This document shows positions 562 through 59,676 of a DNA stretch of 64,000 nucleotides, one piece after another. Location of the stretch: NCBI GenBank assembly GCA_035363095.1, contig DAOSEK010000003.1:8597-72596 (forward strand), given 5' to 3'. The notes beneath the pieces are model-generated. The model was not told the DNA's origin. It was given only the letters and a program-made list of their open reading frames with translations, and did no database searches. Made by a program: the position numbers and the translations under genes. Origin of the DNA: Candidatus Woesearchaeota archaeon (lineage in GTDB: Archaea > Nanobdellota > Nanobdellia > Woesearchaeales > UBA119). Numbering within the stretch: the first letter of the stretch is position 1; every line of letters begins with the position of its first letter.

Positions 562-839
562 TAGATAGTCAAAGTATCTTGGTAGATAGTCTAACTATCT
601 TGTTAGATAGTCTAAGGTTAATCAATTTATGCATTTTTTTGTTTACCTGTTTCTTTTTCCTTCGACCTCAAGACCAAAGTATGCAAAAGACGGATTCATG
701 AGATCGACAACCTCACCATAAAAGGCGAGGTATGTTGGTAATATAAAAGCATACCCTGCATTCAGCGAGGTTGTTGATTACAAGAAAGCATACCGAATCC
801 TCGTATTTAAACACAAGGTATGCTTTTCTATTAATCAAT
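562..839. repeat. Modular hairpin repeat family, copy 1: three 21-22 bp tandem units (tagatagtc...) followed by core palindrome and arm module
   Basis: Contains caacaacctcaccataaaaggcgaggtatgttggtaatataaaagcataccctgcattcagcgaggttgttgattacaagaaagcataccgaatcctcgtatttaaacacaaggtatgcttttctattaatcaa, which matches copies at 10341, 14230, 29033 and 56049. Confidence 0.85.
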
Positions 840-961
840 TAAAATTCTTTAACAAAGTTGCAAAAGGATTAAAATCCTTTGCAAATCCGTGCAAGAATCT
901 TTTAGTTAAAAAAATAGCTTTGAAAAATATACAAAAATATACAAAAACAAAAAAAATACTA

Positions 962-1210: not shown

Positions 1211-1295
1211 TTAAATCCCCAATGCCTGTGGTTTGCACAGTATTTAAAAAGGTTTCCAAAAGTTTTAAATAGATATCACAAAACACTTTTTGTAA

Positions 1296-4045: not shown

Positions 4046-4062
4046 AGTCTAAACAAAATATT

Positions 4063-4131: not shown

Positions 4132-4461
4132 GGATTATTTAAATTATATTTTTTTCTTGTGTTTTTGAAGGTGAAATAATACAAAATAGAGATTTTTGTA
4201 ATAATACATTTTTTAGTATGGACTTTTAGCGAAATATAGAAAGATTAAAATAGTTAAATAGAAAATAATTTATAGTGATTGAATTAAAAATAATTTTATC
4301 GAATTAAGAATTAATCTACAAAATAATTTTAATAATCAGAGTTAAGAATTAAAAGTAATTACAAAGTACATATTGATAAGGCAATTGAATAAGCATAGTC
4401 TTTTTGACAGGTTTTTTCAAGAGTAACATATTTATAAAGTTTAAATTAAATACTGATTTTT

Positions 4462-4762
4462 GATTTCATGAAATCCAGCATCATTTCGCATACTTTGGCA
4501 AATAGAAAAGCATACCTCGTGTTTTAACAAGAGTACTCGGTACACTTTTCAGTAATCAACAACCTATTTGAATACAGCGCATGCTTTTATATTACCAATA
4601 TGCCTTGCCTGTTAGGGTGAGGTTGTTGATTTTTCAAGCCTAAGTAAGAGTATACGGATTCACGGACGAAAAACCTCGACTATTCACAAGATACCTCGGC
4701 AGTTATACCGAGGTTTTTCATTTTTCAAACCGAAAGTTTGAAAAGACGGATTCAGTAAACGC
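4462..4762. repeat. Modular hairpin repeat family, copy 2 (arm + core + hairpin/T-tract module)
   Basis: atgaaatccagcatcatttcgcatactttggcaaatagaaaagcatacctcgtgtttt...caacaacct...aggttgttga...gatacctcggcagttataccgaggtttttcatttttc...gacggattcag. Confidence 0.9.
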
Positions 4763-4941
4763 TTAACAGCGACTATTGGAGAGATACCAAAGATACTTAT
4801 CCTGAGATTTTTCGTTTAAATAAATGTTTGAGGCTAGCTTTTTAAAGTGGAATTTAAAAGAATCATATTATTGTTTTAAAATAAATGATGTATTGGTCTA
4901 ATGTTTGATTTATGATGCTTAATAAGAGGTGTTTTAAAAAA

Positions 4942-7203: not shown

Positions 7204-7426
7204 AATTTTTGAAGTAATGACTTTGTCCTATATTTTTAGATAGGAGTTTTAGATTTTTTTTGTTTATATTTAATTTATTATAAGTTGTGTTTTTTTAATT
7301 GTTTTTTTGAAATCATTATTTAGTTTAACTCATTTTTATTAAAGTATTTTTGATAAAATGATAATTTTTTGATAAAGTAATGGGTATTGATTATTATATC
7401 AAAAAGATTTTTCCTAAATAGCTTTA

Positions 7427-7712
7427 TTTCATGAAATCCTGCTAATTCGCATACTTTTGTCAATAGAAAAGCATACCTCATGTTTTAACATGTGGACTTG
7501 GTACGCTTTTTTGTAATCAACAACCTCGCTGAATGTATTGTATACTTTTATATTACCAACATGCCTTGCCCTTTAGGGTAAGATTGTTGATTTTTTAAGC
7601 CAAAGTGAGAATAGACGGATTTATGCAAGGATTAACCTCGACTATCCAAGAGATACCTCGCCATTTATGCTGAGGTTTTTCATTTTTCAAGCCAAAAGTT
7701 TGAAGAGAGAGA
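7427..7712. repeat. Modular hairpin repeat family, copy 3
   Basis: atgaaatcctgctaattcgcatacttttgtcaatagaaaagcatacctcatgtttt...caacaacctcgctgaatgtattgtatacttttatattaccaacatgcc...agattgttga...gatacctcgccatttatgctgaggtttttcatttttc. Confidence 0.9.
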
Positions 7713-7876
7713 ATCAAAGGTTTAATTAAAAAAAAAGATATTCATAAAACTATTAATATTTAACTTTCTAGTTCTGATATATTCCGGTACTATCTAGTTA
7801 AGATGCATTCTAATATAAGCTTGAAGGTTTTTCGTTTTTAGTATAATTACAACCTATGTTACGATATATTTTATAA

Positions 7877-8521: not shown

Positions 8522-8635
8522 GGGTTATTTTTATTTTTAATTTCTTTTTTTCTCAGATATTATTCTCATTATTGTTGTTATTATTACATTATTATTTGAG
8601 TATATTATTTTTTTATATTTCTTTGTTATTAGTTT

Positions 8636-8785
8636 ATTTTATGAAATCCTCGCTCATTTTGCATACTTTGTTCTTTTGAGGTATGTAATAAAGAATAACT
8701 TGAGAAAAGAAGTATTCACATAACGTTTAACTTAGAATATCCTAAAGATATCTAAGACATTTATGCCGAGGTTTTTCATTGAATA
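8636..8785. repeat. Modular hairpin repeat family, copy 4 (single module; inverted partner at 14230-14372)
   Basis: Near-identical reverse complement of 14230-14372 (atgaaatcctcgctcattttgcatactttg...gacatttatgccgaggtttttc). Confidence 0.9.
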
Positions 8786-8889
8786 ATTCAAGTTTAATTC
8801 GAGTTTTTATACAGGATTTATACTTTCAAAAACTTTTAAACAAAGGTTAAAAACAAGATTGTTGTGCAAAGATTATGCTTTCAAACAAA

Positions 8890-9888: not shown

Positions 9889-10340
9889 TAAGTTTAGTTT
9901 TAGTTTTTCCTTTAAATAGATTGCTTTAAAAACGGGCTAATTACAGCAAAAAAGAAAGATTAAAAAACCCCAAGATTTAAATAATCAATCTAAATCAATT
10001 AGCAAATTGCTGTTTTGGATGGTTTTTCATGAAATTCGTTTTTTTTTCCAAACTGTGGCATTAATGAGAAAGTAAGAAGAGTATAAAAGAGTTAAGAGGA
10101 AAGTATTTTACTTATGAATAATATGAACTTTTTGCCAGATATCTTGTGGTATTTATGCTTGAGTGGTTTTTCATTTATTTTGAATATTAATTTCGCGGAT
10201 TTCAACAAAATTACTCCAAAATATATAAAGTATCAAATAAAGTTTGCACAAGTATCATATGGTTTTTGGGTATTTTCACAAAATCATAATTGTATTAGAA
10301 TTGGATAAAAAAAACTTGATATAAACGTTGAGAACCTATA

Positions 10341-10610
10341 ATGAAAGACCTCAGCCTAAATGCCAAGATTTTTCGTGAATAATCGAGGTTAATCCTTGCA
10401 TGGATCCGTATATTCAAACTTTTGGCTTGAAAAATCAACAACCTCACCCTAAAGGACGAGGTATGTTGGTAATATAAAAGCATGCGCTGTATTCAGCTAG
10501 GTTGTTGATTACAAAAAAGTGTACCGAGTCCTCTTGTTGAAACACGAGGTATGCTTTTCTATTGGCCAAAGTATGCGAATGAACTGGATTTCATGAAATG
10601 AAAACATACC
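10341..10610. repeat. Modular hairpin repeat family, copy 5 (H1-type module + core palindrome + arm)
   Basis: ...tcaacaacctcaccctaaaggacgaggtatgttggtaatataaaagcatgcgctgtattcagctaggttgttgattacaaaaaagtgtaccgagtcctcttgttgaaacacgaggtatgcttttctattggccaaagtatgcgaatgaactggatttcatgaaatgaaaa. Confidence 0.9.
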
Positions 10611-10637
10611 TGATTTAAATTAATGTAAATATACAAA

Positions 10638-13600
10638 GTGTTTGTTCAAATGACTCAGATAAAAAAGCTTGTAATGAATGGTTTTAAGTCCTTCGCGAAA
10701 AGAACAGAGCTTAATTTTGGAAACAATTTTAATGTAATCTTAGGACCAAATGGCTCTGGGAAATCTAATGTTTTAGATGCTATATGCTTTGTTTTAGGTA
10801 GAATGAGTGCTAAGAGTATGAGGGTTGAAAGGGGCTCAAATTTAATCTATAATGGAGGACCTAAGGGCAAAACACTTGAGAAAGCAGAGGTTTCTATTGA
10901 GTTTGATAACTCCAAAAAAGAGTTCCCCTTAGAAGGAGATGTAAAGATTTCAAGAATAATACATCAAAGTGGACAAAGCGATTATAGAATAAATAACAAG
11001 AGAACTACAAGACAAAATGTAATTGATTTACTGAGTGCGGCAAAGATTAATCCTGAGGGGTATAACATAACTTTGCAAGGGGATATTACTAAGTTTATTG
11101 AGATGTCTAGTAATGAGAAACGCCAGATTATAGAGGAGATCTCAGGAATTTCAATATATCAGGAAAAAAAAGCAAAAGCTGAATCTGAACTATCAAAAGT
11201 AGAAGAAAAACTTAAAGAAGCTGATATTATTTTAAATGAGAGAAAAAATTATCTTAAGGACCTTAAAAAAGAAAGGGATCAAGCTTTAAAATACAAGGAA
11301 ATGAAAGATAAGATTGATCAAAATAGAGCTACATATCTAAATATTCAATTAACTAAGAAAAATGTGGAGTTAGAAGAAATTAAATCCAAAGCTACAAAGA
11401 TAAATGTCGAGGTTGAAAAGGCAAATTCTAAGATAGAACAATACAAAAAGAAAATTTCAGATAATAAGAACAAAAGTGAGGAAATTTCAAAACATATTGA
11501 AGAAAAAGGCCAAAAGGAACAGATTGAACTAAATAGAGAGATTGAAGGACTCAAAGTAGATTTTGAGAAGAATAAAATTATTCTTGAAAATCATAAAAGG
11601 GAGAAAGAAAAGCTCTCTGAGAGAAAGATAGCTATTGAAAATGAGATTTCAGATATTGAATCTAAAATATTATTATCACAATCACTTGTAAAGGAAAATG
11701 AATCCATTCTACTAGCTAAGAATAAAGATATAGAATTAATTAAAACAAAGGTTCAAAAAATAAAAAAAGACTATAATCTTGAAAATATTGGCGATATTGA
11801 AAGCTCATTGGAAAAAAATGATAAAGAGATCGAAGAGCTATCAGCAGAAGCAAATTCTTTAAGGGAGATTCAGCAGTCCCTTTTGAGAGAAAAGGATAGA
11901 CTTGCTTTAGAGCTTGAGATGATTTCAAAGGAAGCCGAAAAGATTGAAGGACTTAAAAAAGAACATAAAAAGGAGATTAGTGAACTTGAATCTAAAAAGG
12001 ATGAATTTAAAAAGGCTACTTTACTTTTGAATAATTTATTAAATGATGATTCTAAGATTTCGCTTGAAATTGGAGAGCTTAAAAAGAAGTCGATTTCTTT
12101 AAGAGAAAGACTTGAATCGCTCAAAATAAAAAGCGAGTCAATTAAGCAATCTCAGGCTTTTGATGTTTCGTTAAAGAAGATTCTTGAACTAAAATCTAAA
12201 TACTCAGGGATTTATGGGAAGATTTCAGATCTTGGTACCACACAGGCAAAATACTCTTCAGCCCTTGATGCTACAGCAGGAGGTTCTATGAATTATATTG
12301 TTGTTGATAACGATCAGACAGCAACTATTTGCATTAAATACCTTAAAGAAAATAAACTTGGGAGTGCTGTTTTTATTCCCTTGAATAAGATAAGATATAG
12401 CGATCCTACTCCTGAACAAAAGAAACTATTGGCAACAACTGGAGCAATTGATTTTGCAATAAACCTTGTGAAGTGTGATCCAAAGTTTAGGAATGCTTTC
12501 AAATTTGTCTTTGGCTCAACAATTGTTGTGAATGATATTGATGTTTCTAGAAGGATTGGTATTGGCAAAATAAGAATGGTTACACTTGATGGAGATTTGA
12601 CAGAAACTAGTGGACTTATGAGAGGAGGTTTTAACAAAACTAAAAGGGTTTCAGGATTTAAAAGCGAAGAGTTCTCAAAAGAGATGGAAGAGCTTGAGAT
12701 TAGTGTACAAAAGAGTGATTCCCAGATTTCTAAGCTTGCAAGGGAAAAAGACGAGATAGAATCTAAGATTTCGGAATTAAGAAATAAAAAGGCATCTTTG
12801 GAAGGAGAAATAATTAAGCTTAGTAAAGGTCTTTATCTTGATGAGAATACACTTGATGTGTCTTCAACTAAGGTCGATATTCTTAAAAAGGAATCTGGCA
12901 GAGTTGATAATGAATTATCAAAGATTGTAAGTAAGATAAGTGAGTTAAACAAGAAATTAGCAGGATTAAAGATTGATAAACAAAAGCTAAAAGAAAGTAT
13001 TTCAAAGATGAAAGACCCTGCTAAGGTTGCAGAGCTTACAACATATGAGGAGACCTTAAGAAAGCTTGAAAGGGATATATTTGAAAAGGAACCTATTATA
13101 AAGCTTGAAAAAGATAAAATTGAGTCATATAAAAAGGAAGTTGATGATTCAAAGCAAGCTATTAAAGAACTTGATAAGGAAGATTTAAAGATTACAAAGG
13201 AGATAAATGAACTTTGTAAAAGAATTGAAAACATAAATAAGGAAATTACGCAAAAAGAAGGGAAGGCTGAGAAGTTTTACGTTGAATTTAAAGAACTTTT
13301 TGAAAAGAGAAGTAAGCTTGAAAAGGAAAACCAAGTAATTGATAATGAGATTAATTCTATTTTCTCAGAGTCAAGAACTCTTGAGCAGAAATATAATCTC
13401 TTATCACTTCAGATTGTTCAGGCTGAAGGTGAGAAATCTAATCTGTGTAAACAGCTTGAACCATATGTTAAGGTAGAGCTTATTAAAAATCCTGATGAGG
13501 AACAAATTAAAAAGGAAATTGCACGATTTGAAATGCTTGTAGAGAGTATTGGTACTGTTAATATGAAGGCTTTGGAGATATATGACCTTGCCGAAGGAGA

Positions 13601-14144
13601 GTATAATAAGTTTTTGGATAAAAAGAAAACGCTTGAATCTGAAAGAGAGGAAGTGTTAAAACTTATTAAGAGTCTTGAACATAAAAAGAAGGAAAAGTTC
13701 TTTGATATTTTTGAGAAGACAAATGATAATTTTAAGAAGATGTTTAGTGAGTTATCTACAAAAGATAGCAGTGCCTACCTTGAGCTTGAGAATCCAGAAT
13801 CTCCTTTTGAAGGAGGAATGAATTTGAAGGTTAAGATTAGTGGCAATAGATATCTTGATTTAAGAAGCCTTTCAGGAGGAGAAAAATCATTAACGGCATT
13901 GGCATTTATTTTTTCAGTTCAGGAGTTTGAACCTGCATCATTTTATGTTCTTGATGAGGTTGATTCTGCACTTGATAAAAAGAATAGCGAAAAACTTGCT
14001 CAGCTCATTAAAAAATATTCAAAGCGAGCTCAGTATGTTGTAATCAGCCATAATGATGAGATGATTTCTGAGGGAGATTTGCTATTTGGAGCAAGCATGG
14101 ATAAGGCTACCTTGATTAGTAAGATTATTTCTGTTAGAGTTTAA
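10638..14144 (+). CDS. smc: Chromosome segregation protein SMC
   Basis: N-terminal Walker A GPNGSGKSN, about 1,168 aa with long coiled coils, a hinge, and C-terminal signature LSGGEKSLTALAFIFS plus Walker B VLDEVD. The functional start is probably the Met at 10650 (MTQIKKLVMNGFKSF). Confidence 0.9.
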   Translation: MFVQMTQIKKLVMNGFKSFAKRTELNFGNNFNVILGPNGSGKSNVLDAICFVLGRMSAKSMRVERGSNLIYNGGPKGKTLEKAEVSIEFDNSKKEFPLEGDVKISRIIHQSGQSDYRINNKRTTRQNVIDLLSAAKINPEGYNITLQGDITKFIEMSSNEKRQIIEEISGISIYQEKKAKAESELSKVEEKLKEADIILNERKNYLKDLKKERDQALKYKEMKDKIDQNRATYLNIQLTKKNVELEEIKSKATKINVEVEKANSKIEQYKKKISDNKNKSEEISKHIEEKGQKEQIELNREIEGLKVDFEKNKIILENHKREKEKLSERKIAIENEISDIESKILLSQSLVKENESILLAKNKDIELIKTKVQKIKKDYNLENIGDIESSLEKNDKEIEELSAEANSLREIQQSLLREKDRLALELEMISKEAEKIEGLKKEHKKEISELESKKDEFKKATLLLNNLLNDDSKISLEIGELKKKSISLRERLESLKIKSESIKQSQAFDVSLKKILELKSKYSGIYGKISDLGTTQAKYSSALDATAGGSMNYIVVDNDQTATICIKYLKENKLGSAVFIPLNKIRYSDPTPEQKKLLATTGAIDFAINLVKCDPKFRNAFKFVFGSTIVVNDIDVSRRIGIGKIRMVTLDGDLTETSGLMRGGFNKTKRVSGFKSEEFSKEMEELEISVQKSDSQISKLAREKDEIESKISELRNKKASLEGEIIKLSKGLYLDENTLDVSSTKVDILKKESGRVDNELSKIVSKISELNKKLAGLKIDKQKLKESISKMKDPAKVAELTTYEETLRKLERDIFEKEPIIKLEKDKIESYKKEVDDSKQAIKELDKEDLKITKEINELCKRIENINKEITQKEGKAEKFYVEFKELFEKRSKLEKENQVIDNEINSIFSESRTLEQKYNLLSLQIVQAEGEKSNLCKQLEPYVKVELIKNPDEEQIKKEIARFEMLVESIGTVNMKALEIYDLAEGEYNKFLDKKKTLESEREEVLKLIKSLEHKKKEKFFDIFEKTNDNFKKMFSELSTKDSSAYLELENPESPFEGGMNLKVKISGNRYLDLRSLSGGEKSLTALAFIFSVQEFEPASFYVLDEVDSALDKKNSEKLAQLIKKYSKRAQYVVISHNDEMISEGDLLFGASMDKATLISKIISVRV

Positions 14145-14229
14145 GTTACTTTATATATTGTTTTGGTGATCATAGTTTTATTTTTTTCTTGGCTTTTAGC
14201 AATATGTTTAATAGCTGTAAATAAGAGAA

Positions 14230-14628
14230 ATGAAAAAACTCGGCATAAATGTCTTAGATATCTTTAGGATATTCTAAGTTAAACGTTATGTGAATACTTC
14301 TTTTCTCAAGTTATTCTTTATTACATACCTCAAATGACCAAAGTATGCAAAATGAGCGAGGATTCCATGAAATGAAAAACCTCGGCATAAATGCCGAGGT
14401 ATCTTTAGGATAGTCAAGGTTAATCCTTGCATGAATCCGTCTATTCTGACTTTGGCTTGAAAAATCAACAACCTCGCTCTAAAGGGCGAGGTATGTTGGT
14501 AATATCAAGGCATGTTGGTAATATAAAAGCATCCGCTGTATTAAAGCGAGGTTGTTGATTACAAAAAAGCGTACCGAGTCCTCTTGTTGAAACATGAGAT
14601 ATGCTTTTCTAGTAATCAAGAAAAGAGA
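14230..14628. repeat. Modular hairpin repeat family, copy 6 (longest: extra module + H1 module + core + arm)
   Basis: Contains H1 cctcggcataaatgccgagg (14380-14399), H2 cctcgctctaaagggcgagg (14472-14491), a 13-bp outer palindrome tcaacaacctcgc/gcgaggttgttga, and an internal duplication of gcatgttggtaatat. Confidence 0.9.
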
Positions 14629-14814
14629 TAGAGTAGATAAATAAGAGATCTAACTCAGAGATATAGATAATAGATGTTAAGAGTAAATATAAAGAATATA
14701 TATAGAGAAAATATATAGATAAGACGTATGAAAAATTGATAAGGAAGATTTATACATAGAACTGATATTGATAATTTATATGAGTAAATAGTAAATGAAT
14801 ATAAAGAGTTTGAA

Positions 14815-15975
14815 TTATTGAGTGTTTTCTAGATAAGTGTCCATTAAATCTGATATTGATGTAGTGGTATTCTCCCAACTAAACCTATTGTGTATTAATT
14901 CCATTCCAGCTTTGCCTATTTTTTCTCTAATTTCGGTTTCAAGGGATAGTTTTTTGAGAATTTTGTATAGTTCATAATCAGAATAAGGGTCAAAAAGATA
15001 GCCGTTCTTACCATTTTTTATTATTTCTGAAGCAATGCCTACTTTTGAAGATATTACAGGGATCTGAGAAGCCATTGCTTCTAAAAGCACAAGACCTGTT
15101 GTTTCGGTAAATGATGGCAAAACAAAGATATCCATTGCTTGATAGTAATCTTGTGGATTATCAACTGATCCGACTAGAATTGTATCAGGAAGTTTTGAGA
15201 ATTGTTCTTTTATATCTAAAATACCATCACCTACAATCAAAAGTTTTGGATTTTTGTGTTTTATATCCATTTTTAACCTTCTAAATGCCCTGTATAGAAC
15301 TTTAAGATTTTTTTCTCTTGCTAAACGACCACAAAAACCGATTACTATGCTATTTTTATCAATACCTAGTTTTTGTTTTGCCTCTTCTTTATTGATTGCA
15401 GGATGAAAATTTTTTAGGTTAACCCCAAGGCGTATTGCAACTTTATTTGATTTTACACCAAGACTTGATATTTTTTCTCCTACTTCATTTGAAGGTACCA
15501 TGATTAAATCAACTCGATTTAAGAGAAATCTTTGAATTAATCTAGTTATGAATCTTACAAATCTTTTCTTGATTAAACAACCTTTTATACTTAGTTGGAA
15601 TAGTTCCCAATCAATTGAGTGAACATAGTATAAGAGAGGTTTTTTCATAAGTTTTGAGAGTAAGATTGAACATATTCCTATTGAACCAGATGTGTTTACC
15701 CAGACTAAATCTGCTTTTGAAATGGCTTTTGATATTACTCTGAATTTGAATTTTGGAATACTATAATCTCCTGCTTTTAAATTAGTCAGTGGAATTCTTA
15801 ATGTATGAACATTTTCAAAAATTCTACTTTGCCCAGAAAAATTTGGTGCGATAACTAACACATTGTATTTTTTTGAGAGCATAGGGATTATTTCAAATAA
15901 AAATCTTGATATGCCATCCCATCTTGGAAGGTATGAGTCCGATGCTATTACTATGGTTTTCATTTGAATAAGCAA
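14815..15975 (-). CDS. Glycosyltransferase, GT4 (GT-B fold) family
   Basis: C-terminal EAMASQIPVISSKVGIASEII..GKNGYLF matches the GT4 E-x7-E region. 386 aa. Confidence 0.75.
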   Translation of the reverse strand: MLIQMKTIVIASDSYLPRWDGISRFLFEIIPMLSKKYNVLVIAPNFSGQSRIFENVHTLRIPLTNLKAGDYSIPKFKFRVISKAISKADLVWVNTSGSIGICSILLSKLMKKPLLYYVHSIDWELFQLSIKGCLIKKRFVRFITRLIQRFLLNRVDLIMVPSNEVGEKISSLGVKSNKVAIRLGVNLKNFHPAINKEEAKQKLGIDKNSIVIGFCGRLAREKNLKVLYRAFRRLKMDIKHKNPKLLIVGDGILDIKEQFSKLPDTILVGSVDNPQDYYQAMDIFVLPSFTETTGLVLLEAMASQIPVISSKVGIASEIIKNGKNGYLFDPYSDYELYKILKKLSLETEIREKIGKAGMELIHNRFSWENTTTSISDLMDTYLENTQ

Positions 15976-16057
15976 TATTTGTTAGTTTGTGCAGATTATT
16001 TTGGTTTCTTGTTTTGGTTCCTTGTTTGAGTTTAATGCTTGAGGAAATTTTATGTGT

Positions 16058-16130
16058 TTGTTATATTAGTTTATTGTTTGAGTATACTGTTTGAGTATGT
16101 TGCTTGAGTATGTTGTGAGTGTATTGTCAG
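16058..16130. repeat. Short tandem repeat (about 11-12 bp unit tgtttgagtat(g)) in glycosyltransferase upstream region
   Basis: gtttgagtatactgtttgagtatgttgcttgagtatgttgtgagtgtattg. Confidence 0.7.
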
Positions 16131-16289
16131 ATCATTATTGTAATATCATAATACATATTTCTTGAATTTATTTTTTAATTCTGTTTGTTGCATTTATTAG
16201 TTGATGCTTATGTCTTTTAGTGAATTCTGTTAATTGATAATTAGGTTGCATGAAATTGATGATGAAGTTGCATGAAATTGATGATTGTG

Positions 16290-17048
16290 TTACATGATTT
16301 TGTAAAATTTTTCAGCAAATAAAGTTCCTGTTTTAATCCCGTTAAATAACATTTCCAAATACATTTTTGCAAGTAAAGATATCATTGAGATTTTTTGACT
16401 TTTAAAGCAAGATATTGCCTGAGATTTTTTTCTTATTTGTTTTGAGATATTTATATATATTACAGGATAACTATTTGATTTTAGGTTAAATATGTTCCAA
16501 ACATCAAATGAAAATACATCTGGTTTATAATCATCTCCTAATGAATTGATAATGTCTAAAAGTATTGTAAGTGAGTTACGATGGTCTATATGTACATCAT
16601 CAGGAGCATGTGTAAATATTTTTACAGGTTTGTATTCTCTTAATATCTTTACAAGCTTTGAGAATGTATCTTTTAGTTTGTATTCCAAAAGAAATTTGCC
16701 TTCGGATAAATCAAAAAAAAATAATTCTTTTGCTTTGATTATTTCGTTAGCTTTTAATGATTCATCTCTTCTGGTTTTTATTGTGAATTTTGTTTTTGTC
16801 AAAGGATTTGCTTTTTGACCAGCCGACAAAACAATTACATAAACATCGTATCCTTCTTCGGATAGTTTTGCAAGGCTTCCACCAGCTCCAAGTATTTGGT
16901 CATCTGAATGAGCACAAAAGGCAAAAACATTTCCTTTTGTTTTTGGGATAAGTGAACCTACTTTATTGTTTTGAGAATCTTTCTTGTTTTCGGCCATATT
17001 AGTTTTAGATGTTTGTGACATGATGTTATTCACCTTTAAAGCATACAA
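16290..17048 (-). CDS. PIG-L/LmbE family N-acetylglucosaminyl deacetylase
   Basis: AHSDDQILGAGG (AHPDDE-like zinc motif) and HIDHRN. Confidence 0.7.
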   Translation of the reverse strand: MYALKVNNIMSQTSKTNMAENKKDSQNNKVGSLIPKTKGNVFAFCAHSDDQILGAGGSLAKLSEEGYDVYVIVLSAGQKANPLTKTKFTIKTRRDESLKANEIIKAKELFFFDLSEGKFLLEYKLKDTFSKLVKILREYKPVKIFTHAPDDVHIDHRNSLTILLDIINSLGDDYKPDVFSFDVWNIFNLKSNSYPVIYINISKQIRKKSQAISCFKSQKISMISLLAKMYLEMLFNGIKTGTLFAEKFYKIM

Positions 17049-17408
17049 TTTTTATTTGTTTTGTTTTTAAATATTAAATTATTCCTGTTAATATCTCTTT
17101 TAGGATATGTATTTTTGCATTTTGAATGGATAACTTTGTGAATTTGTTTTTTTAGGTTAAGTTTTGTGTGTTTAGATATAATTTTTGTGTATGAAAGGAT
17201 TATATATTAAGCTATTGAGCATGGTTTTAAACGAATGTTTGAATTTATTGGTTGAAAGTAAATTTTATTGTTTGAAAGCAATTTTTTAAAGTATAACTTT
17301 TAAAGCATGTATTTCAAAGGAGTATGAATAAAATGTTCATTTAAAGAGTTAACCAAAAAGGTATTGATTAACCTTGTTTGTTGGATGTAATTTAGTAGAT
17401 CTTGTTTA

Positions 17409-18368: not shown

Positions 18369-18439
18369 TGATAATTTAAGACTTTATAAATAATTTTGTG
18401 AAAGATTTATAAATAGATAATCTATTCATCTTTAGACAT

Positions 18440-21490: not shown

Positions 21491-21683
21491 ATGATTCTAC
21501 CAGATTTTTTTTAAGATAATCAATTTGTTTATAAATTTATAGCTGATTTTAGGTTTTAGAGAATAAATGTTGTTTTGAATTGAGAATTATTTTAAAAAAA
21601 CTAGACTCTGTTCGGAATTGTACAATTGAGTATAGTAGCACTAGATGAGACACATAAGTTCACTAAGTGAGATTATGTATGGT

Positions 21684-23606: not shown

Positions 23607-23619
23607 ACTGCAATTTTTT

Positions 23620-23925
23620 TTATTTCATGAATCCGTCATTTACATACTTTGGTTTTGGGGTTTGGTCGCAAGCCCTAAAATTTGAAGAAGCGGATTCACA
23701 TAACGATTAATCTAGAAACAATCTAGCAAGATATCTCCTAGTGTTTATGCTTTAAAGATTTTTTATTTTTGTGAGGCAATTAATCATTTTGCATACTTTG
23801 GTGCATAATACAGTAAGTAAGAACGGATAGATTTAAGATGTGTTTAAAAAAGAGAGATTTAAAAATAATAACCTTGAATTATAAATCTGATACCCAAAGA
23901 ATTTATGCTTAGGTTTTTCATCTTG
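23620..23925. repeat. Degenerate, decayed copy of the modular repeat family (copy 7)
   Basis: Contains fragments catgaatccgtc, catactttgg, ggattcac, ttttgcatactttggtg and tatgcttaggtttttcat shared with intact copies. Confidence 0.5.
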
Positions 23926-28928: not shown

Positions 28929-29032
28929 AAGGTTAGCTATTTTTGTTTTGAAAAGATTGAATCTCACTGGTCTTTGAGGGTCTCTGATTTTTTGTTTTTA
29001 GCTCTTTAATTAATTTGTTACAATATTTTAAA

Positions 29033-29168
29033 TTCAACAACCTCACCTTAAAGGGCGAGGCATGTTGGTAATATAAAAGCATGCACTGTGTTAAAGCAAG
29101 GTTGTTGATTACAAAAAAACGTACCGAGTCATCATGTTGAAACACGAGGTGTGCTTTTCTATTAATAA
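29033..29168. repeat. Modular hairpin repeat family, copy 8 (core + arm only)
   Basis: tcaacaacctcaccttaaagggcgaggcatgttggtaatataaaagcatgcactgtgttaaagcaaggttgttgattacaaaaaaacgtaccgagtcatcatgttgaaacacgaggtgtgcttttctattaataaa. Confidence 0.9.
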
Positions 29169-29199
29169 ATAATCTTACATTAATAGTCAAGGGGATTTT

Positions 29200-30408
29200 A
29201 TGAGCGATAATTATAGGTTTACAAGAATTGTTAATATGCAGATTGTACTAGTGGTTTTTTTGATAATTTTTGCAAACTTTGGAGTATCTGCATTATTAGG
29301 AGTTAATAGGGTTAGTTTGACTTATAATGATGTTTTAAGAGGGGGATATGCACAGGATAATGTAGTTATAACAATTGGAAGTGATGAATTAATACCTGTA
29401 AATTTTGAGGCTAAAGGAGATATTAAAGAATGGATACGTTTTGAGCCTTTGGATGGCCCTTTACTTGTAAATAAAGATAATAGTGGCATGCTAAAAATAA
29501 TTGTAGAGCCCCCTATTGATTCTAGAGTAGGAGCTTATGAAGGGAAGGTGCTCATTACTACGGGTTCATTAGGCCGAGTTGAATCCGAGATGGGCTCAAG
29601 TGTCGAGGTTGCCTTTGAATTGAAGATTGTAGTGATTATATCTGATACTCAGATCTTATCATGCAACTCTGGCGGATTTGAGATAAAAGACTCTGAGATT
29701 GGACAACCTAATGAATTTTTTGCAACAATTATGAATAATGGCAATGTGAGAATTAAACCATTTATTGAATTTAAAATTTTTGACCAATTGCAAGAACAAG
29801 AGATACTAAGTACGTCATATTTATCTAAAAATGAAATATTACCCACTACATCTCAAGAGATTATTGATTTTATAGAGTTAAATCTTTCAAAAGGACAGTA
29901 CTGGGTTGAGATTAAAAGTTCTGAATGCAGTGGAGATGGTGCACTTAGAACTTTTTCTATACTTGAGAAAGGAGAAATTGGTGATGTTGGCGAGTTTGTG
30001 AGAATAGATAATTTGCCTTGGGCAAGTACTAAAGAGTTAATCCCTATTGTCGCTCATTTCAGAAATAGAGGAGAGAGAAGTGTGTCTGCACAATTTAAAG
30101 GAACTATTAGTAAGGATGGTAAAATTGTCCAAGTTTTAGAATCTGATATTTTAACCGTTGCACCACAGGAAACAGTACCTATTGAAATGTTTTTTAGCCC
30201 AAAAGATATTGGTCAGTACAAAATTAATGGCAGGGTATACTACAACAACAAAATTACCTTTCAAAAGGGTTCTATTATTAATGTTAATCCATCTAATTCA
30301 TTGGAAGAATCAAATGGGGAATTTATGTTAAGTATAATTTTATCGGTAATAATTGTAATTATAGCAGTATTTGTTTTCTTGATAATAAAAAGGAAAAAAA
30401 ATAAATGA
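29200..30408 (+). CDS. Large surface protein with N-terminal signal anchor and C-terminal TM anchor + basic tail
   Basis: N-terminal VLVVFLIIFANFGVSA; C-terminal ILSVIIVIIAVFVFLIIKRKKNK. Confidence 0.5.
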   Translation: MSDNYRFTRIVNMQIVLVVFLIIFANFGVSALLGVNRVSLTYNDVLRGGYAQDNVVITIGSDELIPVNFEAKGDIKEWIRFEPLDGPLLVNKDNSGMLKIIVEPPIDSRVGAYEGKVLITTGSLGRVESEMGSSVEVAFELKIVVIISDTQILSCNSGGFEIKDSEIGQPNEFFATIMNNGNVRIKPFIEFKIFDQLQEQEILSTSYLSKNEILPTTSQEIIDFIELNLSKGQYWVEIKSSECSGDGALRTFSILEKGEIGDVGEFVRIDNLPWASTKELIPIVAHFRNRGERSVSAQFKGTISKDGKIVQVLESDILTVAPQETVPIEMFFSPKDIGQYKINGRVYYNNKITFQKGSIINVNPSNSLEESNGEFMLSIILSVIIVIIAVFVFLIIKRKKNK

Positions 30409-30535
30409 AGCCTTTAAAGCATAAATGTCCTATGCATCTAGCAGATATTAGAGATTTTTCTTTGGGTTAATCTATCTTATATTAGTTTGAATACTTAGTT
30501 TGATCTCAAATACCAACACCCGCGAATAAAGGACT
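30405..30535. repeat. Partial module of the repeat family (cataaatg...cagatattagag variant)
   Basis: ccttaaagcataaatgtcctatgcatctagcagatattagag matches 32942-32985 and 46770-46790. Confidence 0.6.
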
Positions 30536-32757: not shown

Positions 32758-32934
32758 CTTTATGCTCTCTTTGATTGGAGCTTATTAAATTTAATGGTTT
32801 AATCAATTATTTGTAATTTAAATATGTGTTGTATAACTTCTAATATCATTGAAGTGATTTTTAGCAAGAAAGTGATATTGGCAGTATTGTGTGGGTTATA
32901 CATTTATCAGGATTACTTCAATCTTTCTATATTA

Positions 32935-33505
32935 ATAATTAATGAGAAACCTTAAAGCATAAATGCCTTAGGTGTCTTGCAGATAGTTAAATGTTTTCCT
33001 TGCTTAAATTTCTAATTGTTAATCGTTAAGTGAACCCATCTCTTCTTACATAGGACCCAAAAGGTCAAGATGTGTAAAATGAGCTAGACTTCGCAATAAT
33101 GAAAACCCTCTGAATAAATGAAAGGTGACTTGCGAATACTCAAGGTTAATCGTTTAGTGAATCCATTTCTTCAAACTTCAGGCCCAAAGACCAAACCTCA
33201 AGACCAAAGTATGGGAATGAACTGGATTTCATGAAATGAAAAACCTCGGCATAAATGCTCCAGTTATCTCGCGAATAGTTGAGGTTAATCCTTGCATGAA
33301 TCCGTCTATTCAAACCTTAGGCCTCAAAACCAAAGTATGCGAAGTGATGCTGGATTTCACGAAATGGAAAATCAACAATCTCTCCCTAAAAGGCGAGCTA
33401 TGTGCTAATATAAAAGCATGCACTATATTTAGCAAGGTTGTTGATTACAAAAAAGCGTACAGAGTCCTCGTGTTTAAACACGATATCTCCTTCTCTATTA
33501 ATCAA
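32935..33505. repeat. Tandem array of three module variants + core + arm of the repeat family (copy 9, about 570 bp)
   Basis: Successive units start at about 32942, 33056 and 33200 (each ...ccaaag..atgaaaa(a)cc..taaatg..gaggttaatc..gaatcc..caaac). They are followed by tcaacaatctctccctaaaaggcgag...aaggttgttgattacaaaaaagcgtacagagtcctcgtgtttaaacacga. Confidence 0.85.
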
Positions 33506-33711
33506 TGTAAATAAAACATACTAGTACAAAAATTAATTATTTTAAAATTATATATTTGAACGCAGAATACAACTTAGAATATTTGGAATCTAATTAATAA
33601 AATCTAAAGGGATATTATTGAAAATGTTAGTTTTTTGCTCATAATTCAACTAAAAAAGAAAATATTTAAAAATAGAAAACACAAACGCTATTTATAAGAG
33701 GTGTTTTTAGT

Positions 33712-37950: not shown

Positions 37951-38266
37951 TTCTAAATAAATGATAGATTATACTTATTATGTAAGTGAATATGATAGAT
38001 TTTACTTACTATGTAGGAAATTTAACAATATTTTTGAAAAATGAAAAACCTAGTTATAAACATACAAAAATATCTCAAAAAGTCGATTTTTTTCTTAGTG
38101 ACTCTGTTTTTTGTTGAATGTGTTTTATGTCAGGATTTATTATGTGATATAGGTTTTAAAGATCAAGTTGTGCAAAATGATTGAGTATTTCATAAAAATT
38201 AAGAAATGTAATTATTCCAAATATTTTTAAGCAATTGTTATAAATAAAATAGTTCTTTTTATACTG

Positions 38267-46652: not shown

Positions 46653-46761
46653 CGTATAAAAAACTTATTTATTATTGTTAAATAGTTAAAAAAATACAGT
46701 TAAAAAATATAGTTAATATAGTTAGAATAAATAATAGATAAAAAAACCTTGGACTAATTAC

Positions 46762-46908
46762 CAATGTATCTCGCAGATATTAGAGCTTAATCGTTTAGTA
46801 AATTCATCTCTTTTTACACAGGCACCAAATTCAAAGAGAGGTTGTTGATTTAAAAAAAGAGTACGGAACCCTCGTGTTGAAACACGAGGTATCCTTTTCT
46901 ATCAATGA
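46762..46908. repeat. Modular hairpin repeat family, copy 10 (partial module + arm with perfect H3 hairpin)
   Basis: tctcgcagatattagagcttaatcgtttagt...aggttgttgatttaaaaaaagagtacggaaccctcgtgttgaaacacgaggtatccttttctatcaatg; H3 cctcgtgtt-gaa-aacacgagg at 46870-46889. Confidence 0.85.
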
Positions 46909-46915
46909 AAGATTA

Positions 46916-48920: not shown

Positions 48921-49205
48921 TACTTTCCAATCTCTATTAATGAAAAACCTCGGGGTAAAGACCTAAGTGTCTCGTATATAATCGAGGCTAATCGCTTAGT
49001 GAATCCGTCTATTCAAACTTTCGGCTTGAAAAATCAACAACCTCACCCTAAAGAGCAAGGTATGTTGGTAATATAAAAGCATGCGCTGTATTCAAATAGT
49101 TTGTTGATTACAAAAAATTTTACCGAGTCCTCTTGTTAAAACACGAGGTATGCTTTTCGATTAACCAAATTATGCAAAATGAGCGAGCATTTCACGAAAT
49201 CATTT
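48921..49205. repeat. Modular hairpin repeat family, copy 11 (H1 module + core + arm + start of next module)
   Basis: tgaaaaacctcggggtaaagacc...gaggctaatcgcttagtgaatccgtctattcaaactttcggcttgaaaaatcaacaacctcaccctaaagagcaaggtatgttggtaatataaaagcatgcgctgtattcaaatagtttgttgattacaaaaaattttaccgagtcctcttgttaaaacacgaggtatgcttttcgattaaccaaattatgcaaaatgagcgagcatttcacgaaat. Confidence 0.9.
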
Positions 49206-49351
49206 GGTTAATATCATTTAGGGGGATAAGTTTTAAAATAAAAACTCTTGGATTAATAAAGCAAGGTAAGTATTGGCTATTAAACCATTTCTAAATGTAT
49301 TTTAAAAATGTTTATATAACAAAATATTAATTATTCTAAATTGAAGATGAG

Positions 49352-54750: not shown

Positions 54751-56064
54751 ATGATAAAAAGAATATATGCAAGACAGGTATTTGATTCAAGAGGAAACCC
54801 TACTATTGAAGGAGAAGTTACAACTGAGCAAGGGATTTTTAGTTCTATGGTCCCTTCAGGCGCTTCAACTGGACTTTATGAAGCAGTGGAGCTAAGAGAC
54901 CAAGAAAAAGATTACTTAGGAAAGGGAGTTTTTAAGGCTATTGGAAATGTTAATTCTATTATATCAAATAAGATAGTAGGACTTGATGAAACAAAACAAT
55001 TTGAGATTGATGAGATAATGATTAGGTTAGATGGAACAAAAAACAAGTCTAATTTAGGAGCTAATGCGGTTCTTGCAGTTTCAATGGCTGTTGCAAGAGC
55101 AGGAGCAAAAACACTTAATCTTGAGCTTTTTGAATACCTTAAGATACTTTATGATTCATTATCTACAGAAAAAAACATTGATAAAAGCAATATCAAAAAA
55201 AAGGAATTTGTTATGCCTTGTCCTTGTTTTAATGTAATAAATGGTGGAGAGCATGCAGGAAATGATCTTGATATTCAAGAATACATGATTGTTCCCCTAA
55301 ATGCCAAAAACTTTTCAGAAGCCATGAAAATTGGAACAGAGATTTATCATACCCTTAAAAAGATTCTTAAAGAAAAATACGGTCCACAAGCTGTTAATGT
55401 GGGTGATGAAGGTGGGTTTGCTCCACCTTTGAAATCTGCTAAAGAACCGCTTTATTTAATTATGGATGCAATTAAGAGAACAGGCTACATTGATAAAGTA
55501 AGTATCGCTTTAGATGTTGCAGCTTCAGAGTTTTTTGATAATGGCTCGTATATGTTTGAAGGAAAAAAGCTATCTGGCGATGAATTATTGGATTTTTACA
55601 AAGAGATCGTATCAGAATTTCCAATATGCTCAATTGAGGACCCTTTTGAGCAAAATGACTTTGAATCTTACTCAAGGCTTACAGATCAACTTAAAGGAAT
55701 TCAGGTTGTAGGAGATGACCTTTTGGTAACAAACATTGAAAGAATTAAAATTGCAATTGAGAAAAAAGCCTGTAATTCGCTTTTATTAAAGTTAAACCAA
55801 ATTGGTACATTAAAAGAAGCTTTAGAAGCTGCTAACCTTTCAAGTAAATCTAATTGGGGAGTAATGATATCTCATAGAAGCGGTGAAACAGAGGACTCAT
55901 TTATTGCTGACCTTGCCTGTGCACTTTGTTTAGGACAGATAAAAAGCGGAGCGCCTGCTAGAAGCGAAAGACTTGCTAAGTATAATAGAATCTTAAGAAT
56001 TGAAGAGAAGTTAAAGGAAAGAGCTTCTTTTTCAAGGGTTTTAAAATCAAAAACCTCGGTCTAA
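54751..56064 (+). CDS. eno: Enolase (phosphopyruvate hydratase)
   Basis: N-terminal IYARQVFDSRGNPTIE, and VGDDL / SHRSGETED / LKLNQIGT active-site blocks. The last about 17 nt including the stop lie inside repeat copy 12. Confidence 0.9.
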   Translation: MIKRIYARQVFDSRGNPTIEGEVTTEQGIFSSMVPSGASTGLYEAVELRDQEKDYLGKGVFKAIGNVNSIISNKIVGLDETKQFEIDEIMIRLDGTKNKSNLGANAVLAVSMAVARAGAKTLNLELFEYLKILYDSLSTEKNIDKSNIKKKEFVMPCPCFNVINGGEHAGNDLDIQEYMIVPLNAKNFSEAMKIGTEIYHTLKKILKEKYGPQAVNVGDEGGFAPPLKSAKEPLYLIMDAIKRTGYIDKVSIALDVAASEFFDNGSYMFEGKKLSGDELLDFYKEIVSEFPICSIEDPFEQNDFESYSRLTDQLKGIQVVGDDLLVTNIERIKIAIEKKACNSLLLKLNQIGTLKEALEAANLSSKSNWGVMISHRSGETEDSFIADLACALCLGQIKSGAPARSERLAKYNRILRIEEKLKERASFSRVLKSKTSV

Positions 56065-56180
56065 AGGGCGAAGAGTTGGTAATATAAAAGCATGCGCTGT
56101 GTTAAAGCGAGGTTGTTGATTACAAAAAAGCGTACCAAGTCCTCGTTTTTAAACACGAGGTATGCTTTTCTATTAATCAA
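56049..56180. repeat. Modular hairpin repeat family, copy 12 (core + arm), overlapping enolase 3' end
   Basis: aaaacctcggtctaaagggcgaagagttggtaatataaaagcatgcgctgtgttaaagcgaggttgttgattacaaaaaagcgtaccaagtcctcgtttttaaacacgaggtatgcttttctattaatcaa. Confidence 0.9.
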
Positions 56181-56257
56181 TATTTGAAGTTCTAAGCGGT
56201 ATTTAAAATTTGTTTAAATTAGATATGAAGATTAAATATCACAATTAGATATAAAGA

Positions 56258-57526: not shown

Positions 57527-57598
57527 TTTTATATTTTAAACCTTTGTTTTCAGCGACCGTAAGTCTTAAAATTCTATTTTGTTAATTATTTATATTAA

Positions 57599-57725
57599 TA
57601 ATGAAAAACCTCTGCATAAATGGGAGGTATCTCGTGGATAGTCAAGGTTAAAGGTTTAGTGAATCCGTCTCTTCAAACTTTAGACCTTAAGACCAAAGTA
57701 TGCAAAATGAGCTGGATTTCACAAA
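57599..57725. repeat. Modular hairpin repeat family, copy 13 (H1-type module only)
   Basis: atgaaaaacctctgcataaatgggaggtatctcgtggatagtcaaggttaaaggtttagtgaatccgtctcttcaaactttagaccttaagaccaaagtatgcaaaatgagctggatttcac. Confidence 0.85.
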
Positions 57726-57811
57726 AATCTAAATAACTTAGACTCGGTTGTTTTCTTAGTATGTTATTTTCTTAGTATGTTGTTTTCTTATTATATTGTT
57801 TTTTGTATAAT

Positions 57812-59251: not shown

Positions 59252-59457
59252 TTAATTCTTTTAAGAAGATATATAAACGTTTCGATGAAGTCTTTAATTT
59301 GTGCCATACATTATAAAAACAAATGAGATTTCGATTAGGATTTGCTAACTAATTAAAAATTCACACACTAAAAATTCACACACTGGACGTGTTTATCTAA
59401 ATTTCACAAGGTAATTTTAGGATAATTTCAGGATAATAATCAATTTGCTTATTTGTT

Positions 59458-59554
59458 GATATCATGAAATCCTGCATCATTTCGCATACTTTGGTCAATA
59501 GAAAAGCATACCTCGTTTTGAAAAACGAGGACTCGGTACGCTTTTCTATAAATC
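59458..59554. repeat. Modular hairpin repeat family, copy 14 (arm module only)
   Basis: atgaaatcctgcatcatttcgcatactttggtcaatagaaaagcatacctcgttttgaaaaacgaggactcggtacgcttttctataaatca. Confidence 0.9.
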
Positions 59555-59676
59555 AGGGCTTAAAAGACTTATAGGACTTTTTTAATAATTTGTTAAAAAC
59601 CTGTTAAAAAAAGTTGTTAAACTATTTAAGAGTAGTAAATTAACTATTTAAAGGAGGATTTCTACTATTTGGATAG

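Follow-up and report, generated by a model that had tools for sequence, protein, structure and literature searches.

What kind of sequence comes to occupy so many of the intergenic spaces of an archaeal genome, in hairpin-rich copies that look like mosaics of one another, and by what means does it get there? The question is raised by a 64,000-nt stretch of contig DAOSEK010000003.1 (hereafter the window, i.e. the whole stretch of DNA that was analysed), in which a first-pass annotation had described a dense interspersed repeat family around a cluster at 14230-14628, and had proposed for it three readings: a non-autonomous mobile element, a family of small RNAs, or a set of terminator/insulator cassettes. 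We argue that the repeats are probably non-autonomous derivatives of an insertion sequence (IS) of the IS200/IS605 family, that is, palindrome-associated transposable elements (PATEs); as such they represent a known kind of mobile element with a sequence family not contained in Rfam, and not a new class. The remark of the annotation that the family was not recognised thus stands at the level of sequence, while the kind of element had already been described.

The recurrence of the repeat in the window is far beyond chance. All 15 intervals first listed carry one family (as judged by self-comparison, blastn and nhmmer), and a 24-base core pattern was matched nine times in the window versus 0 times in 100 shuffles. 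Blastn with six copies (merged intervals) assigned 3574 nt to the family, or 5.6% of the window where about 5% had been estimated, and an nhmmer profile built from six long copies returned 20 hits. Self-comparison revealed direct families of up to 9 copies along with many inverted pairs (79-96% identity), bearing out the claim that the copies occur in both orientations, and a 16th, decayed copy, absent from the original list, was found at 38033-38198. The window (GC ~30%) has archaeal gene content (archaeal CCA-adding enzyme, NMD3, SMC and TFB, as well as MutS/MutL), and the copies sit between housekeeping genes (those for DEAD helicase, GAPDH, CCA-adding enzyme, NMD3, SMC, TFB, enolase, MutS/MutL and others); the 28 open reading frames (ORFs) that flank most copies proved in a Pfam scan to be housekeeping genes or to have no domain hit. 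No transposase was found among these 28 ORFs, nor in the window by tblastn with IS200 and IS608 TnpA query sequences, in agreement with the earlier statement that no transposase ORF is associated with the repeats. The ORFs lying inside copies, which had been dismissed as translation artefacts, are indeed not conserved between copies, and the units are too short to encode a transposase. The Rfam scan of the window at gathering threshold was passed by a single tRNA-Arg, and no Rfam family matched the repeat.

On the top strand, that is, with the originally quoted consensus reverse-complemented, the family resolves into two units and a composite of both. Unit S (~130-150 nt) extends from TTCATGAATCC to CCGAGGTTTTTCAT and has the layout 5'-TTCATGAATCC...GCATAC(TTTGG-loop-CCAAA)...GAGATAC(CTCGGCATTTATGCCGAG)GTTTTTCAT-3', and unit C (~135 nt), equivalent to the 'core + arm' of the first-pass annotation, extends from TAATAGAAAAGC to GAGGTTGTTGAT and has the layout 5'-TAATAGAAAAGCATAC(CTCGTGTTTCAACACGAG)...CAACATAC(CTCGCCCTTTAGGGTGAG)GTTGTTGAT-3'. 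In the composite (265 nt), which propagates as one unit, C lies within the apical loop of the left-end hairpin of S. The three modules quoted previously are real (M1, M2 and M3 at hidden Markov model positions 14-112, 108-250 and 234-283), yet the biologically meaningful units are S (M3+M1 on the opposite strand), C (M2) and the composite, the dominant arrangements being M1-M2-M3 (~265 nt), M1-M3 (~130-150 nt) and M2 alone (~135 nt), with the junctions M1-M3-M2 and M2-M1 also present. The ends are sharp in alignments of 13, then 35 full copies, and of 27 isolated C copies. In the copy alignments, S has no terminal inverted repeat beyond the 5-nt ATGAA/TTCAT, and nothing is common to both ends of C. 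Instead of inverted repeats, subterminal imperfect palindromes are present at both ends, further from the left end (hairpin start 16 nt from it in C, ~27 nt in S) than from the right one (hairpin foot 9 nt before it in S, C and the IS described below), with the tetranucleotide ATAC directly 5' of every subterminal hairpin of the family. Folded as single-stranded DNA, the C consensus reaches -32.6 kcal/mol (z=-9.5); it also includes three nearly invariant blocks outside the hairpins (column identity 0.95-0.97, inflated for the first two by the scan pattern used to find copies).

Direct evidence of mobility was obtained by searching the flanks of every copy against all other comparison loci (metagenome contigs, contigs of metagenome-assembled genomes (MAGs) and IS contexts, numbered with the prefix L), which produced two clean pairs of empty and filled sites between sister species. 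In the first pair, the empty site of L027 reads on the top strand AACCCTAGAT^TTTTTAGGC and the filled site of L077 reads AACCCTTGAT(TTCATGAATCC...CTGAGGTTTTTCAT)TTTTTAGGC; a 266-nt composite interrupts in L077 what is uninterrupted at the orthologous L027 site (flanks 90-94% identical), and splits a 247-aa ORF, intact in L027, into residues 1-131 and 131-247 on either side of the insertion. In the second, the empty site of L025 reads AAACTTTGGT^TTTTCTCAA and the filled site of L023 reads AAACTTTGAT(TTCATGAATCC...GCCGAGGTTTTTTAT)TTTTCTCAA, the S copy lying between SMC and NMD3 in L023 and being absent from L025, L007 and the window. Reduced to their essentials, the empty sites are CCCTAGAT^TTTTTAGG and CTTTGGT^TTTTCTC, and the filled form is CCCTTGAT(TTCATG...TTTTTCAT)TTTTTAGG. 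In both pairs the insertion is precise, and a TTGAT-like pentamer is present once before it and is not duplicated after it; no target-site duplication was detected in these two pairs or in the copy alignments. Copies are likewise absent from orthologous intergenic regions of sister species.

The target can be read from the flanks. At 51 distinct left ends of S and composites the five flanking positions are T43 T47 G40 A49 T50 (mostly TTGAT), conservation stopping one base further upstream, and at 53 left ends of standalone C they are T49 T48 N(G17/C15/T12/A9) A51 T52. Because this motif is one-sided and has a free middle base, TTNAT is the target and not part of the element, and S and C both insert immediately 3' of it. 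An AAT target duplication, suggested by the orientation in which the repeat was first read, was dropped given the top strand and the one-sided TTNAT flank. Several further candidates for empty sites were rejected: the intergenic regions of the window and of the MAG contig L007 are too diverged to provide clean ones, the difference between L006 and L051 at ~4360 proved to be a decayed copy, and the indels between near-identical loci were copy-number changes of tandem repeats, a replacement, or recombination/assembly collapse between two C units, and in no case an insertion. The replacement concerns strains that are 96-99% identical (L032:6022-7152 versus L082:7129-7331), one of which has, in place of a 1.1-kb segment bearing an S copy and a small lipoprotein-like ORF, 200 nt of unrelated sequence. 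In another case (L064:843-1017 versus L071:1328-1775), near-identical loci differ by 271 nt, with C-S in one and C followed by a composite in the other, a difference that could have arisen by recombination between two C units or by assembly collapse.

The family is genome-wide in the organism of the window and in at least two sister species, and is not a local duplication: among the matches listed, about 73 of the 80 metagenome loci carry it and none of them overlaps the window. In the collection of GTDB-representative genomes the core pattern occurs on 12 contigs, 11 of which belong to one MAG ('uncultured Methanosarcinales archaeon binchicken_co27_466', the only such genome with the pattern besides that of L010). 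This MAG (GC 34%) is a different species from the window (79% nucleotide identity in SMC), and the lineage carrying the family is labelled Methanosarcinales at NCBI. The remaining contig, L010 (CAZQHF010000014.1), is filed under the 'Candidatus Saccharibacteria' bin co27_102 from the same co-assembly; it carries a C unit and the start of an S unit, together with ORFs paralogous to window 26398-28021 and 36629-37369, and probably represents archaeal DNA wrongly assigned to a bacterial MAG. A third syntenic species (locus L023) also has the family. Contigs from many metagenomes (e.g. JGI Ga0116194_1000190 and Ga0334885_1000064), and also NCBI GCA_964620695.1, match the window at 99.6% identity or more, and NMD3 has only five relatives at 60-67% identity, the next being at 32%; because of this drop, we consider the host clade to be small and isolated. 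The repeats are 85-93% identical between species whose NMD3 proteins are only 62-67% identical. Viral contigs contained no match to the core pattern or the end pattern. Short-read (Logan) contigs of the organism of the window (L018-L022) end inside repeat copies (window 8741 and 10440), and such assembly breaks may explain why no GTDB-representative genome of this very species shows the core pattern.

A possible source of the transposition activity emerged from the tblastn survey of all compared loci with the two TnpA queries, which produced one significant hit (L037:8320-8769, E=7e-15). It encodes a protein of 149 aa (Pfam Y1_Tnp, E=5e-32) with the HUH motif HVH and a C-terminal Tyr, and lies on a 38-kb contig (29% GC) that bears three family copies; 379 homologs were found at E<=1e-20, the majority on contigs shorter than 3 kb. 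Copies at 98% and 80% identity from other metagenomes occupy different genomic contexts, and since near-identical copies are found in several contexts, the tnpA belongs to a real insertion sequence the ends of which can be defined. The resulting candidate parent (L037:8165-8797, ~630 bp) contains tnpA only, with a terminator-like hairpin upstream and a second hairpin just before the start codon. Its right end, ACGAGATAC / TCCGCCCTTTAGGGCGGA / GAGGTTCAT^, may be compared with those of S, CACGAGATAC / CTCGGCATTTATGCCGAG / GTTTTTCAT^, and C, CAACATAC / CTCGCCCTTTAGGGTGAG / GTTGTTGAT^ (slashes set off the hairpins). At the left, the 98% group of the IS has ...TAAATAC / CTCGGTCTTTAGGCCGAG / GGCTTGTCTTTTTT and C has TAATAGAAAAGCATAC / CTCGTGTTTCAACACGAG / GACTCGGTACGCTTTTTT, while the 80% group starts with TAATAAAAAC, like C. 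Local alignment scores of the IS ends against those of S and C are 3.3-5.6 standard deviations above shuffles, and homology at the right end extends over more than 30 nt.

ATAC precedes every hairpin of S, C and the IS, with the exception of the left end of the 80% group, which has ATTC. The guide tetranucleotide of IS608-type elements occupies the position that ATAC has here, 5' of the hairpin. In the 80% group (L110/L112/L116), the ATTC-bearing left end is flanked by T-rich (TTTTT-like) sequence in its three contexts, and we note an apparent co-variation of guide and target, ATTC going with TTTTT-like and ATAC with TTNAT, TTCAT or TTGAT, as far as these ends can indicate. Copies of the IS200-type element (L037:8165-8797; L107-L117) stand at 98% identity in backgrounds of 29% and of 38% GC, and at 80% identity in groundwater archaeal contigs, and one homolog is annotated Candidatus Woesearchaeota; this distribution suggests a recent spread of L037-type IS between lineages. 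With regard to an autonomous partner near the copies, clustering of the 644 ORFs of all loci revealed no multi-copy transposase (the top clusters being radical SAM enzymes and ABC transporters), Pfam recognised no transposase domain in the 402-aa ORF that has copies on both sides (29200-30408), and an rve fragment (L023:16631-17544) was rejected since its ends are unrelated to the family.

Taken together, the empty sites, the TTNAT target and the homology to IS200-type ends support the first of the three original readings and give it a specific mechanism. PATEs are defined as lacking inverted terminal repeats, target duplications and a transposase while having near-terminal palindromes and a short targeting oligonucleotide; they are related to IS605-type ends and often insert into or next to other elements (PMC3119063). 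In the mechanism that we propose, a Y1 (HUH) TnpA supplied in trans would bind the subterminal hairpins on single-stranded DNA, and the ATAC that immediately precedes each hairpin would guide it to the cleavage sites, predicted at TTNAT on the left flank and at TTCAT or TTGAT at the right end; it would then excise the top strand, by way of the single-stranded circular intermediate expected of this class, and re-insert it 3' of another TTNAT. As every right end is itself a TTNAT (TTCAT in S, TTGAT in C), each copy creates a fresh target, and new copies stack head-to-tail into mosaics. Junctions of this type are seen for C followed by S (GTTGAT^TTCATGAATCC, at window 33363/33371 and in L023), for S followed by S (TTCAT^TTCATGG, at 14371/14372) and for S followed by C (TTCAT^TAATAG, in L010 and L057).

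Several observations weigh against this explanation. The tnpA of L037 is the sole one encountered in the window and the ~770 kb of further loci that bear the family; the L037 IS, moreover, has 41% GC in a contig of 29% GC and is 98% identical to copies in contigs of 38% GC that lack the repeat family, so that it could have arrived recently and be no more than related to the true driver. Its left end matches C in hairpin type and in the TAATA.AAA start but is not the left end of S, the hairpin of which (TTTGG/CCAAA) is unlike those of the CTCG type. T/A runs leave the element boundaries uncertain by 1-4 nt, and a very short duplication may have gone unnoticed. Within the composite, C follows CTTTGG and not a TTNAT; we infer that the composite arose by a single atypical event and then spread through its outer S ends. 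Strains at least 99.6% identical have identical repeat content and show no insertion polymorphism, and recent or current activity must therefore be low. Finally, the three invariant blocks of C are only partly explained by guide or left-end functions.

These blocks raise the prospect that C is not simply a deletion derivative but has a second function, either as a regulatory or guide RNA borne by the transposon (of omega-RNA type and working with a TnpB or IscB not yet seen) or as a transcription boundary element exapted by the host. They include a TATA-like TAATATAAAAG and a central ATCAACAACC, the latter able to pair with and mask the right-end cleavage site GGTTGTTGAT, and C is over 90% conserved across species with proteins at 62-67% identity. 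We regard such a role as doubtful; if true, it would make of a PATE a genome-wide functional module in an archaeon.

Among the competing explanations, the one that survives best would have the hairpins kept and spread by a single-copy domesticated REP-associated tyrosine transposase (RAYT) and not by an IS, possibly to the benefit of the host, in the manner of repetitive extragenic palindromes (REPs) and bacterial interspersed mosaic elements (BIMEs). The chemistry would be the same (Y1/HUH, hairpins, no inverted repeats, no duplication), the clusters are mosaic, of mixed orientation and very dense in intergenic DNA, the family is conserved across the species with such divergent NMD3 proteins, and almost no copy adjoins a tnpA. 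On the other hand, the units measure 130-265 nt and have distinct left and right ends, unlike REPs of 20-40 nt, their right end shares its more than 30 nt of homology with a tnpA-bearing IS found in several contexts, the sole Y1 gene found in the contigs compared belongs to that multi-context IS and no RAYT flanked by repeats was found in them, and one insertion lies inside a gene. Weighing both sides, we consider a domesticated RAYT unlikely.

A host-exapted terminator or insulator cassette, in which hairpin and T-run are kept to stop read-through between closely packed genes, is a less probable account still, and one that must be judged by the orientation of the copies. In window 1-20000 there are 13 terminator-like sites (versus 7.1 +/- 3.0 in shuffles), eight of which are right-end hairpins of the element, in every case on the top strand and trailed by TTTTTCAT or TGTTGATTTT. 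At tandem intergenic sites, 62 copies have the top strand along the genes and 24 against them, or 33 versus 16 (p=0.02) once orthologous sites are collapsed, and some copies abut stop codons (46911/46916; 56064). The site types themselves (52 tandem, 24 divergent, 18 convergent) are unremarkable, and the 24 of 94 site clusters that lie between divergent genes are placed where no terminator is needed. Furthermore, the hairpins decay (66-89% Watson-Crick) without compensatory change, the copies are missing from the orthologous intergenic regions of sister species, the orientation bias is only ~2:1, and termination in archaea relies mainly on oligo-T tracts. What survives of the idea is a side-effect: as a by-product of transposition ends, right-end hairpins with T-runs would look like terminators on the top strand, and this may account for the ~2:1 excess of copies with that strand along the flanking genes. 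Replication direction found no support inside the window as the cause of the bias, since the copies there keep to the direction of the neighbouring genes also where this reverses; the more likely cause appears to be selection acting on transcriptional effects, or else insertion into single strands exposed by transcription.

Even less probable is that the repeats are copies of a structured small-RNA gene (regulatory sRNAs, or guide scaffolds resembling omega-RNA or HEARO). In its favour, the forward strand has a stable fold (z=-4.2), C has its invariant blocks and the TATA-like motif, a weak HEARO hit (20.9 bits, E=0.02), of the sole family to appear at permissive E-values, falls on 10434-10559, and PATEs elsewhere often carry omega-RNAs (PMC10055086). 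Yet no Rfam family reaches its gathering score, and the HEARO (RF02033) hit, which lies on the strand opposite to the top strand, falls from 20.9 to 12.5 bits when the focal copy is scored, the gathering score being 83, and is most likely due to chance. RNAalifold applied to the 35 full copies gave -26.4 kcal/mol for the forward and -15.5 kcal/mol for the reverse strand, with covariation terms of only -0.74 and -0.9 kcal/mol and 2-3 compensated pairs; in 195 distinct copies, the stem pairs are 66-89% Watson-Crick and G-U pairs do not exceed A-C mismatches (81 versus 117 in stem H1, 40 versus 72 in P3). This pattern is one of neutral decay and not of selection on an RNA, which speaks against the small-RNA reading originally offered. 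TnpB or IscB were not encountered among the ORFs scanned or clustered in general, no search aimed at them having been made. Lastly, a miniature inverted-repeat transposable element of the DDE type (similar to Correia and RUP, its inverted terminal repeats short and its target duplication, AAT/AAAT, 3-4 bp long), which could appeal to the 5-nt inverted repeat of the ATGAA...TTCAT ends and to the AAT found on both sides of each module in the orientation first used, is scarcely credible, given that the 3' GAAAT includes a conserved G missing from the 5' flank and so belongs to the element and not to a duplicated target, that the conserved flank is one-sided with a variable middle base, that the TTNAT-like motif stands once in empty sites and is not duplicated in filled ones, that terminal inverted repeats >=10 bp and fixed-length target duplications were missing from the copy alignments and the two empty/filled pairs, and that no DDE transposase with matching ends was found (only the rve fragment with its unrelated ends).

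The individual copies of the window are collected in the table below.

Copies of the repeat family in the window (positions of the 64,000-nt stretch; S and C as defined in the text)
Feature	Interval	Strand	Details	Evidence
Focal cluster	14225..14650	-	TTGAT target 14615-14619	sequence, nhmmer, end motifs
Focal cluster, C unit	14464-14614	-	left-end hairpin CTCATGTTTCAACAAGAG; right end ...GAGCGAGGTTGTTGAT at 14464-14479; internal 19-nt duplication	
Focal cluster, S 3' half	14372-14463	-	ends GCCGAGGTTTTTCAT	
Focal cluster, complete 148-nt S variant	14230-14371	-	directly after TTCAT of S 3' half	
C, then S remnant	590..845	-	C 703-833; TTGAT flank 834-838; S remnant 590-702	nhmmer, end motifs
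Composite	4460..4825	+	composite 4465-4721; TTGAT target 4460-4464; S left end, C 4500-4630, S right end ...ACCGAGGTTTTTCAT	
Second S 3' half	4722-4825	+	stacked after composite right end	nhmmer, end motifs
Composite, then short S fragment	7423..7730	+	composite 7428-7683; TTTAT target 7423-7427	nhmmer, end motifs
148-nt S variant	8633..8794	+	S variant 8638-8779; TTTAT target 8633-8637	self-comparison, nhmmer, end motifs
Composite	10326..10620	-	composite 10341-10597; 45 nt upstream of SMC start codon	nhmmer, end motifs
Decayed fragments	23616..23924	.	both orientations; S left-end-like 23620-23631; S right-end-like 23907-23921	
Standalone C	29030..29172	-	C 29033-29164; TTTAT flank 29165-29169	nhmmer, end motifs
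Divergent S-type fragment	30397..30535	-		self-comparison, blastn
Stack	32930..33529	-	C 33371-33505; S 33236-33363; S right-end halves 33099-33190 and 32938-33068	nhmmer, end motifs
Decayed S copy	38033..38198	-		self-comparison, end motifs
C left-end part fused to S right-end half	46742..46911	-	C left-end part 46885-46904 (TTCAT flank)	nhmmer, end motifs
Composite	48930..49207	-	composite 48940-49198	nhmmer, end motifs
Standalone C	56036..56186	-	C 56046-56175; TTGAT flank 56176-56180	nhmmer, end motifs
S unit	57597..57728	-	S 57601-57725	nhmmer, end motifs
3'-truncated composite	59454..59555	+	TTGAT 59456-59460; S left end and C left end	self-comparison, nhmmer, end motifs

Self-comparison, blastn and nhmmer also returned measured intervals with other ends (4450-4825, 7410-7730, 14220-14650, 48915-49215, 56035-56186, 57596-57728 and 59448-59551). 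On its - strand the focal cluster can be written as TTGAT^(C 14614-14464)(S 3' half 14463-14372)^(S variant 14371-14230), with terminator-like hairpins at 14400-14379 and 14492-14471 on that strand, and it matches 8633-8780 at 96% identity in the self-comparison. In the stack at 32930..33529, the second S half begins right after the TTCAT end of S 33236-33363. Decayed fragments (~10020-10330) lie beside the composite upstream of SMC, and the intergenic region that holds it measures 762 nt in the window versus 134 nt in the sister MAG. The fused copy at 46742..46911 lies 5 nt from the TFB stop codon, and the C copy at 56046-56175 runs into the final codons of the enolase ORF.

Short tandem repeats (13-nt AAATTATCTAACTC and 12-nt GAGAGAGTTTTT) abut element ends (L051:5350-5460 versus L097; L053:8110-8160 versus L086) and vary in copy number between strains ~99% identical; a motif ATCTAACTCA also follows the focal cluster at 14640-14700. 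The intergenic sequence at 21670-21831, after the ORF at 20303-21490, holds a tandem array of ~9 TGTTTGAGTGAGGTTCTA-like units, each 18 nt long, that has no relation to the hairpin family, and a long (TTA)n microsatellite is found at 61923-61979. Genes for bacterial-type MutL and MutS lie adjacent to each other on the - strand (40809-45510); to our knowledge, these are uncommon in archaea outside Halobacteria and Methanosarcinales-like lineages, and the pair is consistent with the NCBI label of the sister MAG.

An unexplained repeat covering more than 5% of a genome region can thus be annotated as a mobile-element family with defined units, ends, strand and target (TTNAT). For practical purposes, the repeats break short-read contigs of this clade (e.g. 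at 8741 and 10440) and create spurious ORFs. A right end that regenerates its own target illustrates the origin of mosaic arrays, and the sets of hairpin, ATAC guide and TTNAT found in S, C and the two IS variants constitute natural guide/target pairs for IS608-type rules. Moreover, the range of PATEs, known chiefly from haloarchaea and from a few bacteria, is widened to include an isolated low-GC lineage of archaea from anaerobic digesters.

As to known systems, the short and abundant intergenic repeats to which the family was first likened (BOX, BIME, Correia and RUP) are unequally close to it. BOX is modular too, and we know of no transposase for it; Correia elements (CREE) and RUP have the wrong mechanism, with inverted terminal repeats and TA duplications (DDE type), and none of BOX, Correia and RUP has the anatomy of TTNAT flank and subterminal hairpins seen here. 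BIMEs are the nearest of these analogies: like the present family in our reading, the REP/BIME repeats of proteobacteria depend on Y1 transposases, form mosaic intergenic clusters of hairpins, and have a conserved tetranucleotide 5' of the hairpin (GTAG in REP, ATAC here), and their hairpins can act as terminators, as those of the present family might, although REPs are single hairpins with a domesticated single-copy RAYT, whereas the units of 130-265 nt described here have IS-like ends. With IS200 (Salmonella/E. coli) and its tnpA-only relatives, the candidate parent shares a single Y1_Tnp gene of 149 aa and the two hairpins, one terminator-like and upstream, the other just before the start codon; its TnpA is only ~32% identical to the IS200 TnpA used as query, and the end sequences are unrelated. 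ISDra2 (IS200/IS605 family, Deinococcus radiodurans) inserts 3' of TTGAT (PMC2806898), as the present elements do at their left end; it has subterminal hairpins, and its Y1 TnpA drives a strand-specific mechanism on single-stranded DNA, such as we propose here; it differs in being bacterial and autonomous (tnpA + tnpB), the middle base of the target being relaxed (TTNAT) and genes being absent in our family. The closest counterparts are the haloarchaeal PATEs (e.g. HqIRS46 and HqIRS56 of Haloquadratum walsbyi; Dyall-Smith et al. 2011, PMC3119063), which are likewise too short for a transposase, lack inverted terminal repeats and target duplications, have near-terminal palindromes placed further from the 5' than from the 3' end and a short conserved targeting oligonucleotide on the 5' flank, carry ends related to IS200/IS605-type transposons, and amount to hundreds of copies with elements in or beside other elements. 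The family described here shows no detectable sequence relation to them and differs in its host (a low-GC (~30%) uncultured archaeon of anaerobic digesters), in its related IS (IS200-type with tnpA only, where haloarchaeal parents are mostly IS1341/TnpB-type), in its two units that form a stable composite spreading as one element, and in being common, at 85-93% identity, to species the proteins of which are only 62-67% identical.

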